The notes under the pieces are model-generated. The model had not been told where the DNA came from, searched no databases, and saw only the letters and a list, made by a program, of their open reading frames with translations. DNA of 64,000 nucleotides, from the sequence record MW598459. The stretch is one strand, 5' to 3'. The position numbers and the translations under genes were made by a program. Each line of letters begins with the position of its first letter. The first letter of the stretch is position 1. Shown here one piece after another: positions 26,649 through 30,383 of the stretch. Origin of the DNA: Escherichia phage vB_EcoM_RZ.

Positions 26649-27398
26649 CTAAACTTTTGCGTACTTCCAAAAATGGCCGTTTGACCTATACATTCGGCCT
26701 GTCTTTTTATTTCTTTTACAAGCTGTGTATATATTTTGAGTATTGCCCGCCAATTGTAATAATTCCTTTGCCTCAGCTCCCGAATTATACTTTTCAAGTA
26801 TATTACCAAATTCATCGCATCTACAAACCGGTGTTCCAGTTGCCTTTCGGCATGCTTCTCGGCGCAACTTTTTCGTTTCTTCGGTTTGCGGATTTTCTTT
26901 AAATCGTCTCATTTGTGCATCGCGATTCTTTTGCCGTTGTTCATCAGTAATTGGATTATTTTGATAATACAATTTTAATGAGTTGGCTATTTTGCTTTTG
27001 GTTTTATCAGACACAGGGTGGTCGTTATGTCGCTTGTGTAAAGCAATTAACATTTTGTCTTTAAACTCGGATTGACTCCATAAGTTTGACATATGTTCAC
27101 TAACGGCTTTACTATGTTCTTTTCGCATCCATTCATATTTTGCGCTATCAAATTTGTCACCACACATCCGGTGTATAGCAAACATTAATTTAGAAAGTCG
27201 ATAAATTTTAAAAAGTAACAAATGCGCAATAAAATGTTCTCTTGCTGATAACAATACCAAATTATCTTCGGTGTCAGGCCCACCCAAACACCTTGGTAGT
27301 ATATGATGGGACTCCGTATAAAATGGGATATTCTTTTTGTTTAGGCCCCTTGCGAGGCCTTTGTCTATTAATTTATTATATAATTTTAGATAATTCAT
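26649..27398 (-). mobile_element. HNH homing endonuclease gene (249 aa)
   Basis: N-terminal ESHHILPRCLGGPDTEDNLVLLSAREHFIAH HNH motif; C-terminal helix-turn-helix-like DNA-binding repeats; inserted between 56 and 61. Confidence 0.8.
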
Positions 27399-28423
27399 AT
27401 TTTTGCATATTTGGATAATCGAAGTTTTGCCATTAAACCTTGTGCAATATTATCATTCATATAGGCTTCAATTTGCTCAGGCGTTGCTCCTTCCGATTTA
27501 ATCATTTCATTTATATCTTTCGTATGCCACGGTGCATTGTCCCAGAACATAACAGCTTCTCCTGCATCGACTAATTTCTTCATACGTTTAATCGTATCAG
27601 GATGTCTTGCTTCTGAATCCATCACCCATACTCTGGTTTCTGGATAAGGAACGGCTTCCAATGCTAATGTTCCACCGGTTATCGCAATGCTGTTAGGGAT
27701 AAACAAACTATCAATCGGACCTTCCATTACCCACACGCGCTTGCGCTCGTCAATCTTGTCTACACCATAGACTTTGGAAGCTTCTGGGTGGGCTTTGATT
27801 GTGATATATTTTTGTGGTGCATCTTTGCGAAGAGCTCGTCCTTGGAAAGATTCGATTTCTTTTTTGCCGTTGAAGATAGGAATAACCAAGCGTGGTTCAT
27901 TCGTTTCATTCTTATACGTCCCAGGATTAACGGAGTTAACTAATGCAGGCCATTTGTTTGTAAACCATAACCGGTTCCAAACATTGCTCGGAATACACCG
28001 ACTTTTTACATACTTAACTATCGGATGCGCTTCTGGTAAAGTATCGATTCTTTCGCAAAAAGCAAGCTGCTCAATAACCGGAGTTTTTTCTGGTTCTTTC
28101 GGAGTTTCTGCAACTTCATTACGTTGTCTGCCAAAGGCATTCTCCTTATACTTCTCAACCATATATTCCCGGTGCAAATCCGGCTCAAACTCTTTTATGT
28201 ATTTGCTTATATGCGTGGAGTAGTCACAGTTAAAACATTTCACGTAAACCGCACCATCAGCCGGATTAGTATACGCCCAGAATCGAGCCTTGTGTGAATC
28301 TTTCTGGGAGTCCCCACAAACCTTGCAACGACAGTTTGCTTTAAATGTGCTCCCGGTGACTTCTCTATAACGTGGTTGATACGATAAAGCTCTGACTGCA
28401 AATTCTTTATCAATATATGACAT
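27395..28423 (-). CDS. 61: DNA primase gp61
   Basis: 342 aa; zinc-binding CRCKVCGD...CFNCDYS N-terminus; matches recalled T4 gp61. Confidence 0.9.
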   Translation of the reverse strand: MSYIDKEFAVRALSYQPRYREVTGSTFKANCRCKVCGDSQKDSHKARFWAYTNPADGAVYVKCFNCDYSTHISKYIKEFEPDLHREYMVEKYKENAFGRQRNEVAETPKEPEKTPVIEQLAFCERIDTLPEAHPIVKYVKSRCIPSNVWNRLWFTNKWPALVNSVNPGTYKNETNEPRLVIPIFNGKKEIESFQGRALRKDAPQKYITIKAHPEASKVYGVDKIDERKRVWVMEGPIDSLFIPNSIAITGGTLALEAVPYPETRVWVMDSEARHPDTIKRMKKLVDAGEAVMFWDNAPWHTKDINEMIKSEGATPEQIEAYMNDNIAQGLMAKLRLSKYAKI

Positions 28424-28642: not shown

Positions 28643-28834
28643 TTATACAACGAAGATAGCTTTATCACCATTTGCATCAGTCACTTCATAAGTGTCTTCA
28701 TGATACAATGGAATAATCCAGGTAACACCATCATCAGCGATAACATGGATTGCTTCTTGGTCTTGCGACACGATTTCATATTCTTCAAAAATCTGGAAGA
28801 CGGAAATCTTAGAGCCCGTACACATTGCACTCAT
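28643..28834 (-). CDS. Hypothetical protein (63 aa)
   Basis: ORF in minus-strand array. Confidence 0.4.
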   Translation of the reverse strand: MSAMCTGSKISVFQIFEEYEIVSQDQEAIHVIADDGVTWIIPLYHEDTYEVTDANGDKAIFVV

Positions 28835-29030
28835 ATTGTTCCCTTCTTTTAATCAGTTGACGATGTGCCTTTTTAAGTTTACGAATCTGACGTTTAGTCG
28901 GTCGCGCAACATAAGCTTGAGTAGTTACTCGTCCAAAAACTCCATACTTGGGAGACGGCGTATCAATAAAGACTTCCCACTGGCAAGAGTAACTATATAT
29001 TGCTTTAGAGAATTGGGTCAAAACAAACAT
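28809..29030 (-). CDS. Hypothetical protein (73 aa)
   Basis: ORF in minus-strand array. Confidence 0.4.
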   Translation of the reverse strand: MFVLTQFSKAIYSYSCQWEVFIDTPSPKYGVFGRVTTQAYVARPTKRQIRKLKKAHRQLIKRREQYECNVYGL

Positions 29031-29031
29031 A

Positions 29032-29385
29032 TTAACCTCGCTTCATGAAGGCATTAAAAATCTGGTCGTCAACAGACTGTTCTTGAGCTTTGACCCAAGC
29101 TCCTTCCAGAATGTCATTCGCTTCAGTAGATATCATGACCCCAATTTCAGGGTTTCCTGTTATCCATGCTGCACAATCGCGTACATTCTTTTTATCAAAT
29201 GGATAGCCGCGAGTATCTTCATAAGGTCCATTCATTACCATAAATGAGCGAGCCTTTATGATAACATCATCTTTGACGATAATATAGCCAATCGCTTGAT
29301 TAAACCGAGGCTCACGGAATTCATAATGAGCATTACCATCATTATTGCTCACCAGTTCAAAATTCAGAAAATTATAATAACTCAT
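29032..29385 (-). CDS. Hypothetical protein (117 aa) with C-terminal tail shared with upstream neighbour
   Basis: Ends ...SVDDQIFNAFMKRG. Confidence 0.45.
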   Translation of the reverse strand: MSYYNFLNFELVSNNDGNAHYEFREPRFNQAIGYIIVKDDVIIKARSFMVMNGPYEDTRGYPFDKKNVRDCAAWITGNPEIGVMISTEANDILEGAWVKAQEQSVDDQIFNAFMKRG

Positions 29386-29386
29386 A

Positions 29387-29824
29387 CTAATCTCGCTTCA
29401 TGAAGGCATTAAAAATCTGGTCGTCAACTGAATAAACGGGGGTTTCCAGAATTTTCAAAAGACTGTTTTTGATGTACTTACCCGGGATACCCATATTAAC
29501 AATACTGTCATTCAATTCATTGTCAGGGTTGATGTCTTTAAATTCAAACCCATCAAATTCAACCTTGTCAGGAATACCATCGGCGAAAAAATAAACCAAT
29601 TGGTGCATTGTATTGCACGAAAATAATTTGGACTTGACCGCAATAAGTTCTTGCCAATGGTTTAATTCTTTGTTAAGGAGTTTATGGGCAAACGTAATTC
29701 TATTATCACTATCAACAAGAAAATAACCCAGGTATTGAAGGTCGTCGCTCCAAAACGCCCTGTATGCTTGTGCATTTGGATTTTTACAACGAAGTTTTTT
29801 GATAACTAAATTTCTGTTAATCAT
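29387..29824 (-). CDS. Hypothetical protein (about 146 aa) with the same C-terminal tail
   Basis: Ends ...SVDDQIFNAFMKRD; start trimmed to avoid overlap with sp. Confidence 0.45.
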   Translation of the reverse strand: MINRNLVIKKLRCKNPNAQAYRAFWSDDLQYLGYFLVDSDNRITFAHKLLNKELNHWQELIAVKSKLFSCNTMHQLVYFFADGIPDKVEFDGFEFKDINPDNELNDSIVNMGIPGKYIKNSLLKILETPVYSVDDQIFNAFMKRD

Positions 29825-29825
29825 T

Positions 29826-30119
29826 TTATTCACCTGTAACCCATTGAACAATTTTGCTATTGTCAAATGAAGCATCGCAATACAGAACATAGTTATACTG
29901 CATAACGTCACCAGAAGTCAATTGGTCAGATACTTCTTTAACCATATCAGGGCGGTCACGTTTAGTAATATTCATGATATCAGCATAAATCTGATGTTCA
30001 ACATCAGTCTGGTCAGCAGTCATAGACCACTCACAAAGGTCTTTATCAAGTCCAGCAGTAACTGGAGCTGTACCACATGATGCTACGGTAAGAATTGCTG
30101 CGATTAATAACTTTTTCAT
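29826..30119 (-). CDS. sp: Spackle periplasmic protein
   Basis: 97 aa with N-terminal signal peptide MKKLLIAAILTVASCG; size and position as T4 sp. Confidence 0.7.
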   Translation of the reverse strand: MKKLLIAAILTVASCGTAPVTAGLDKDLCEWSMTADQTDVEHQIYADIMNITKRDRPDMVKEVSDQLTSGDVMQYNYVLYCDASFDNSKIVQWVTGE

Positions 30120-30179
30120 TTCAATCTCCTCAGTAGTTGATAGGGATAATATACTGCATTACCCCTTTGATGTAAACTG

Positions 30180-30383
30180 TTATTTTTCGTTAGAACGATA
30201 ATCATATTCAAAAACTTTATTGTCATTAACAAAGGCTTTAACCAGCGCATTATTCACTTCTGCATACTGTACTGTAACCCATTCAATCATATTTTTGTCA
30301 CTGACATCCAGGGCGGTTTCTTTGGTAAACATATTACCATTTTCAAACCAACCAATAAACACTACGTTCTCTAATTTATACAT
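30180..30383 (-). CDS. dmd: Dmd antitoxin (inhibitor of RnlA/LsoA)
   Basis: 67 aa; VVF.GWF.N..MFTKE......QYAEVN.ALVKAF..D.KV matches recalled T4 Dmd. Confidence 0.8.
   Translation of the reverse strand: MYKLENVVFIGWFENGNMFTKETALDVSDKNMIEWVTVQYAEVNNALVKAFVNDNKVFEYDYRSNEK

Follow-up and report, generated by a model that had tools for sequence, protein, structure and literature searches.

Introduction

Phages T4 and RB69 encode, as gp61.2, the anti-DarT factor A (AdfA; LeRoux et al., 2022, as cited in PMC11257639 and PMC9391042). Few phage inhibitors of the DarTG defence system are known, and AdfA is among them. A single substitution in the body of the RB69 protein, R164H, switches on its binding to DarT1, and the sequence of a cloning primer gives its C-terminus as QIFNAFMNRG (PMC11257639). 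The interval containing dmd, tifA and adfA has been termed the anti-toxin-antitoxin ('anti-TA') island (PMC9391042), and amplifications and deletions arise at the dmd-tifA locus of T4 via microhomologies of 6-10 base pairs (bp) (Srikant et al., 2022, PMC9391042). Here we analyse the related locus of Escherichia phage vB_EcoM_RZ, in a stretch of 64,000 nucleotides (nt) of sequence record MW598459, called the window below and used for all positions unless another record is named. A short direct repeat in this stretch closes two adjacent minus-strand genes, gene C and, next to it downstream, gene B, and gives both proteins the same C-terminal peptide, the tail. We propose, with a probability of about 70%, that the repeat consists of the 3' ends of tandem, anciently diverged AdfA paralogues in the counter-defence island between sp and gene 61, and that their tails have been selected and used as joints.

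Results

A direct repeat at the ends of two adjacent genes

An earlier note on this DNA, made from the sequence alone, had described a 38 bp direct repeat that gives two adjacent genes the same C-terminal tail. The repeat is confirmed, with two copies in the window and recurrence in relatives, but its exact core is 37 nt long (29037-29073 and 29392-29428); the coordinates that the note gave for the two open reading frames (ORFs) are right (Table 1). There are exactly two copies of the core in the window and no third at up to three mismatches, and 0/100 shuffles yielded two matches to the 37-nt string. The note had also proposed looking for the same tail in the rest of the genome and in related phages: a six-frame search of the window gave no further tail peptide motif beyond the two copies, and the tail was found across related phages, as described below.

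Ungapped extension gives a 49-nt repeat with 46/49 identical positions, whose copies start 355 nt apart and enclose a 306-nt segment. Read on the minus strand, each copy is TC[A/T] GTT GAC GAC CAG ATT TTT AAT GCC TTC ATG AAG CGA G[A/G]T TA[G/A] T ATG, that is, the 14 final codons of one gene, its stop, one base and the ATG of the next gene. The last codons of gene B contain a Shine-Dalgarno-like GAGG, 5 nt ahead of the ATG of the following tifA-like gene. The tail DNA is identical to that of the window in phage UPEC01 and in the VR20 record (L009), and the two-gene arrangement recurs with slightly different tails in SP18, VR7, VR25, TH22, EAWsc9, MN01 and several metagenomic contigs; the repeat is therefore not an assembly artefact.

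Both copies also contain a perfect 10-nt palindrome, CTTCATGAAG (29046-29055 and 29401-29410), which is probably incidental because it is missing from the Tequatrovirus and RB69 versions of the tail. A 16-nt inverted repeat, 94% complementary, pairs part of the tifA-like gene with the start of the C tail (28848-28863 / 29421-29436) and is likely to be a chance match.

The tail is shared with AdfA and its relatives

Proteins B and C both terminate in SVDDQIFNAFMKR[G/D], and this peptide is identical in every AdfA sequence retrieved; over the whole family the motif reads S[V/I]DDQIFNAFM[K/N][R/K][G/D]. All 60 proteins (60/60) collected in homology searches with C, B and RB32 AdfA as queries end in this motif or in a one-residue variant of it, and they fall into three types according to the body, the part ahead of the tail: A (AdfA), B and C. 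In RB32, AdfA (206 amino acids, aa) is encoded beside a 118-aa paralogue; both proteins end in SIDDQIFNAFMN[K/R]G and the pair has a 49-nt repeat of its own. An exhaustive profile search added two further tail-bearing types, P0064 (125 aa, B-like) and P0069 (120 aa, type D), both encoded directly after sp in other T4-like contigs. The slot after sp is occupied by AdfA (~210 aa) in T4, RB32 and RB69, by C (~145 aa) in Dhakavirus and Gaprivervirus, and by P0069 or P0064 elsewhere. At least one tail-bearing protein always directly follows sp, the second member, B, being optional, and the tail peptide is constant over at least four body types (A, B, C and D) in four phage genera.

The Pfam model of AdfA (PF23813, 211 positions, gathering cut-off 27 bits) scores T4 gp61.2 at 450 bits and, above the cut-off, the RB32 orthologue of B (ORF033c) at 32.2 bits over residues 22-118. 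The family is narrow, since the exhaustive search yielded 11 cluster representatives among 1.84 billion proteins; word-indexed protein searches for wider members returned close relatives only, and a scan of IMG/VR with a degenerate tail pattern gave 16 loci. One B-type cluster, P0038, is labelled in NCBI as a protein of a Limosilactobacillus reuteri metagenome-assembled genome, and its source is almost certainly a coliphage contig mis-binned into that genome.

The bodies of B and C resemble each other and AdfA

BLASTP of B against C finds the 13-residue tail as the sole shared stretch, and the A, B and C families are three separate PHROGs of unknown function. The bodies were compared with hhalign after removal of the last 15 residues, with more diverse profiles, collinear matches of ~80 columns and reversed-profile controls, which overall gave P = 0.04-0.67. 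Tail-less B matched tail-less C (P = 7.9e-4), the C-terminal half of AdfA (P = 3.2e-5, probability 73%; reversed control 0.28) and its N-terminal half (P = 6e-4). The match of C to the C-terminal half of AdfA was weak (P = 1e-3 over 84 columns; reversed control 0.67), and the two halves of AdfA matched each other at P = 4.6e-3. Sequences that bridge the types point the same way: P0069, P0064 and P0036 align to AdfA models or PHROGs across 85-110 residues, the C-type P0036 matching the AdfA PHROG over residues 35-143 (E = 0.004, weak), and AdfA and the short paralogue of RB32 are 34% identical over 106 residues.

AlphaFold models of the two proteins, with a mean predicted local distance difference test score (pLDDT) of 80 for B and of 80-88 in the beta-rich body of C, have low confidence in the final ~45 residues of C, tail included. 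In both, four long strands and a short one come first, then a helix of 12 residues and a further strand, and lastly one or more C-terminal helices. Searched with Foldseek against BFVD, the B model has the C protein of VR25 as its top match outside its own family (E = 1.7e-4, TM-score 0.61); the next matches are a 157-aa protein from Yersinia phage fPS-65 and a 212-aa viral protein (E = 2.9e-3), which is, judging by its length, likely to be an AdfA. The C model matches a B orthologue at E = 1.8e-4, and models of the two families rank each other second or third among viral proteins; no solved structure resembling the B/C domain was found. From these profile and model comparisons, B, C and probably both halves of AdfA appear to be copies of one ~90-residue domain, which is well supported for B and likely for C. 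With one domain each, neither B nor C matches the apparent two-domain architecture of AdfA. Their status as diverged relatives of AdfA would then explain why the two genes share the same 14 C-terminal amino acids.

Selection acts on the tail peptide

We compared the codons of 54 tails, representing 27 distinct DNA versions. Within the core DDQIFNAFM, synonymous variants occur at 8/8 degenerate codons (GAT/GAC, CAA/CAG, ATT/ATA, TTT/TTC, AAT/AAC and GCC/GCT/GCA), and a single non-synonymous change was seen among the 27 versions. This variation at every degenerate codon of the core implies strong purifying selection on the amino-acid sequence and, as judged from these codons, the tail is a selected functional peptide.

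At the nucleotide level, neither copy of the repeat contains a sigma-70-like promoter or a terminator. The closest promoter-like site, 29021 to 28992 (-), overlaps the last few bases of the copy at the end of gene B and lies mostly in the tifA-like gene. The two copies with their flanks had no common or unusually stable RNA fold (z = -1.75 and +1.04, with different structures), and the repeat had no Rfam match at E up to 1. An RNA element in the repeat is not supported, given the differing structures, the ordinary folding energies and the lack of an Rfam match. A nucleotide role is assignable only to the last ~10 nt, which hold the GAGG ahead of the next ATG.

Genes are gained, lost and replaced with end-points at the tails

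Gene B is absent from Dhakavirus E33 and from the VR26 record (L018); the gap equals one repeat unit exactly, and it both starts and ends within tails. The tifA-like gene is absent from EAWsc9, MN01 and L036, and the gap begins right after the ATG of the tail. In L028, a metagenomic contig, sp and B on either side of C have 78-83% nucleotide identity to those of the window, while the body of C has been replaced (19% amino-acid and ~45% nucleotide identity to C of the window). The last 30 codons of C (KYIKNSLLKILETPVYSVDDQIFNAFMKRD; Table 1; 899-991 in L028) are 80/90 nt (~89%) identical between the two, with 28/30 residues kept in L028. Where residues are identical between window and L028, the same codon is used at 24/27 positions of this C tail module versus 99/168 in the flanking genes (Fisher P = 0.0016); the low synonymous divergence of the module may reflect either recombination or extra constraint. 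Whether it is B that is present or missing, the tifA-like gene that is present or missing, or the body of C that is exchanged, the end-points lie at the tails.

The Tequatroviruses show three further states: AdfA only in T4, AdfA and B in RB32, and B only in T2. The T2 state corresponds to a 609-nt deletion that removes adfA and leaves its last ~10 nt (L023 2460-2495 compared with L004, RB32, 1870-2490), and because these are spared, T2 keeps the ribosome-binding site and start of B. In six Tequatrovirus loci, AdfA ends in NKG if B follows and in NRG, like the B tail, if 61.1 follows directly, which is the pattern that a crossover between the two tails would leave. T2 has been published as naturally without adfA; it retains the short AdfA-like paralogue B, annotated there as gp61.2.

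Because the peptide fixes most of their DNA, the tails form short stretches of nucleotide homology shared by genes that have otherwise diverged, and these stretches also contain the stop codon, the ribosome-binding site and the next gene's ATG. Since T4 uses microhomologies of only 6-10 bp at this locus, a repeat of 37-49 nt should be an efficient substrate for recombination.

Perfect identity of the two copies is specific to this lineage

With synonymous sites randomised, as for tails with a divergence as old as that of the bodies, the expectation is 4.8/10 differing core codons, and all 12 codons would match with a probability of P = 1.8e-4. Within genomes, the two tails differ at 0 positions of a 30-nt core in the window, UPEC01, VR20 and RB32, at 1 in L020, at 2 in TH22, L034 and L036, at 3 in SP18 and VR7, and at 5-6 in EAWsc9, MN01 and L028; given this span of 0-6 of 30 positions, the perfect repeat is lineage-specific. 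Compared with L034 or L036, two changes suffice to produce it, ATT or GTC to GTT in B and CAA to CAG in C, each towards the state of the other copy, and the rare codons GCC and CGA are common to both copies. We infer that the perfect 37-nt identity reflects a short recent homogenisation (a gene-conversion tract) and not a recent duplication, an explanation that the codons fit but do not prove. Strict concerted evolution of the tails as a general rule is ruled out by the range of within-genome differences; their episodic homogenisation is plausible.

The genomic setting of the two genes

The window belongs to a T4-like phage of the genus Gaprivervirus, with 95-97% identity to UPEC01, 212, P479 and SP18. 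On the minus strand, the order is gene 41 (helicase), several small genes, dmd, sp, C, B, the DUF7279 gene, a 63-aa gene, 61.1 and the primase gene 61 (Table 1). Gene C starts 1 nt past the stop of sp, and B comes next. The DUF7279 protein is 39% identical (E = 1e-13) to T4 gp61.4 (TifA, a ToxN inhibitor); in L030 and L034, another DUF7279 gene lies upstream of sp.

Table 1. Coordinates of the repeat copies and of the surrounding genes in the window
Feature	Position	Strand	Description
Repeat copy, gene C end	29383..29431	-	14 final codons (SVDDQIFNAFMKRD), TAG stop, one base, ATG of gene B
Repeat copy, gene B end	29028..29076	-	14 final codons (SVDDQIFNAFMKRG), TAA stop, one base, ATG of tifA-like gene
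Gene C	29387..29824	-	145 aa, PHROG 8539, no Pfam match; slot directly after sp
Extended conserved C-terminal module of gene C	29387..29479	-	last 30 codons (KYIKNSLLKILETPVYSVDDQIFNAFMKRD) and stop
Gene B	29032..29385	-	117 aa, PHROG 4122; short paralogue matching the C-terminal half of AdfA
sp (spackle)	29826..30119	-	conserved upstream anchor of the variable slot
tifA-like gene	28809..29030	-	DUF7279; starts within the repeat copy at the end of gene B (copy 1)
dmd	30180..30383	-	inhibitor of RnlA/LsoA toxins, same anti-toxin island (PMC9391042)
Gene 61 (DNA primase)	27395..28423	-	conserved downstream boundary of the variable cluster

Relatives also vary between sp and dmd (30120-30180). 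This interval contains an extra 342-nt gene in UPEC01 (L002 3283-3624) and EAWsc9 and an extra 240-nt gene in MN01 (L026 3097-3336), both absent from the window, and in RB69 it holds imm and imm.1. Just downstream of the primase gene, an ORF of 249 aa (26649-27398, -), whose start overlaps the primase stop by 4 nt, has a sub-threshold match to HNH endonucleases (20 bits against a cut-off of 21.4) and may encode a homing endonuclease; in E33, a gene annotated mobE lies near the primase gene.

Discussion

Our analysis suggests that the tails of B and C are the mark of a common, ancient descent from the AdfA family, kept by selection and used in the exchange of genes. The earlier note had taken the bodies of the two proteins to be unrelated, and this is not supported, as tail-less profiles, the predicted order of fold elements and Foldseek link B and C both to each other and to AdfA. 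It had offered two accounts of the tail. As a shared functional tail, the peptide is indeed selected and constant over at least four body types, although the role in localisation that the note had in mind found no support. As a recombination scar, the tails do coincide with the joints at which genes were gained, lost or replaced, but the word 'scar' is wrong for what is an ancient family signature.

Several observations weigh against this interpretation. The protein of gene B scores 21.2 bits against PF23813, below the cut-off, with residues 102-117 placed on model positions 196-211 only, and the protein of gene C has zero matches in Pfam. The homology of the bodies comes from weak profile scores and from models built on shallow alignments, and the Foldseek scores count the identical residues of the tail. 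The tail itself has a pLDDT of <50 in C and of 57-66 in B, and at this low confidence the models are uninformative on the contacts of the tail. End-points at the tails would be expected from insertion and deletion alike. As for homogenisation, comparisons of paralogues across genomes give a range similar to the 0-6/30 nt found within genomes, and the sampled lineages are not independent, the perfect match lying two point changes away from L034 and L036.

In a different origin, B and C would be unrelated and each would have gained the same mobile C-terminal peptide by recombination (domain shuffling). BLASTP similarity confined to the tail, cross-matches among the three families in Pfam and PHROG that run mostly via the tail, first tail-less hhalign comparisons that were weak with shallow profiles (P = 0.0055-0.06) and the replacement of the C body in L028 with its tail module kept would all be consistent with such a capture. 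With richer tail-less profiles, however, the bodies align over ~80 collinear columns (P = 3e-5 to 1e-3; controls 0.04-0.67), the predicted elements come in the same order with mutual Foldseek ranks of second or third, P0069, P0064 and P0036 bridge to AdfA models or PHROGs over 85-110 residues, and all members sit in the same genomic slot. We consider independent capture unlikely.

It is very improbable that the repeat is maintained as a nucleotide-level element, be it a promoter, a ribosome-binding or translational-coupling cassette, an RNA structure or a recombination site, with the peptide incidental. The extension of the repeat through the stop into the next ATG with GAGG 5 nt before it, the rare codons GCC and CGA in both copies and the reduced synonymous divergence of the extended C tail from L028 (P = 0.0016) could be read in this way, but across genera the peptide is unchanged despite DNA changes at 8/8 degenerate core codons, the RB69 and T4 versions encode one and the same peptide with many base differences, the ribosome-binding site accounts for the last ~10 nt only, and promoter or terminator, common RNA fold and Rfam match were all not found in the copies. 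There is next to no chance that the repeat marks the border of a recent tandem duplication or a mis-assembly. Near-identical direct repeats around a 306-nt segment do resemble a duplication junction; the segments ahead of the two copies are not duplicates of each other, and the arrangement occurs with diverged tails in many independently sequenced genomes of two genera. Duplication or mis-assembly is refuted by these comparative data.

If B and C are diverged AdfA paralogues, as we prefer to think, each gene would encode one ~90-residue beta-rich domain (AdfA apparently two), a variable linker and the invariant C-terminal peptide. In these small inhibitors, the tail may be the constant part that does the work or the docking, whereas the fast-evolving body would set which toxin variant is recognised; a body that acts as the specificity element would agree with the effect of R164H on the binding of RB69 AdfA to DarT1. 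The recombination system of the phage itself could use the tails as in-frame joints, at which inhibitor cassettes are added, deleted or exchanged. In the AlphaFold models of B and C, the tail is placed on a low-confidence helix that is poorly anchored to the body, which would suit a partner-binding motif but is weak evidence for one.

A more specific version, which we regard as quite improbable at present, is that the slot after sp is a cassette system in which a fixed docking peptide binds an invariant partner and interchangeable bodies are joined to it in frame at the tail. The partner might be gp45, the phage sliding clamp, and binding to it would hold the proteins at replication forks, where single-stranded DNA is modified by DarT; it might also be a conserved active-site region of DarT-like toxins. 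If this were true, a phage population could shuffle and stack anti-toxin specificities, the combinations seen being C with B in the window, AdfA with B in RB32 and B alone in T2.

The AdfA family was already known; what we add is an enlarged and reorganised family in which the tail is singled out. Our results suggest that current Pfam and PHROG models understate the breadth and modularity of this family, with three PHROGs and at least four body types for one domain and one 13-residue peptide, and they point to a constant functional role for the tail and a specificity role for the body. They also provide additional candidate counter-defence genes, namely C and B in Gaprivervirus and Dhakavirus and the short paralogue in T2, and a concrete example, in a phage counter-defence island, of a conserved coding tail able to serve as an in-frame recombination joint.

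Among the known systems, AdfA is like B and C in its C-terminal peptide, its slot directly after sp, its island with dmd and tifA and, distantly, its body (by profiles and predicted fold). It differs in length and make-up, with ~210 aa and apparently two domain copies against one each in B (117 aa) and C (145 aa); C has an extra conserved segment of 16 residues, KYIKNSLLKILETPVY, ahead of the tail, and the position of R164H in RB69 aligns with Asp70 or Cys71 of B, depending on the alignment, and not with His or Arg. RB32 ORF033c and the T2 'gp61.2' are orthologues of gene B, with 44-47% identity, the same PHROG (4122), the same tail and a position after AdfA (RB32, with its own 49-nt repeat) or sp (T2); they come from another genus, use different synonymous codons in the tail, and their upstream partner is AdfA and not a C-type gene. 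The promoter-early stem-loop (PeSL) cassettes of T4-type phages, reportedly proposed by Arbiol and colleagues in 2010 as mediators of modular gene shuffling, are also short repeats at gene boundaries in hyperplastic regions. PeSLs are intergenic and consist of a promoter and a hairpin, whereas the repeat of the window is coding and has neither a promoter nor a hairpin signal.

The C-terminal epitopes by which T4 gp43, gp55 and gp33 bind the gp45 clamp (PMC2988020) resemble the tail in that they are short peptides of hydrophobic and acidic character at the very C-terminus, separated from the body by a variable linker and common to otherwise different proteins; in types A, B and C, the linker ahead of the tail likewise varies in both length and sequence. 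By eye only, LFDMF in the end of gp43 of the window (...KKASLFDMFDF) is similar to IFNAF of the tail. The tail differs in its basic end (KRG), and the gp55 motif DLDFLYG is spaced differently. A role of the tail as a clamp-binding motif would be speculative. The dmd-tifA microhomology system of T4 (PMC9391042) belongs to the same island, and in it gene content is likewise altered via short direct repeats. There, chance microhomologies of 6-10 bp were at work in laboratory evolution, whereas the repeat of the window is 37-49 nt long, coding, conserved and frame-preserving.

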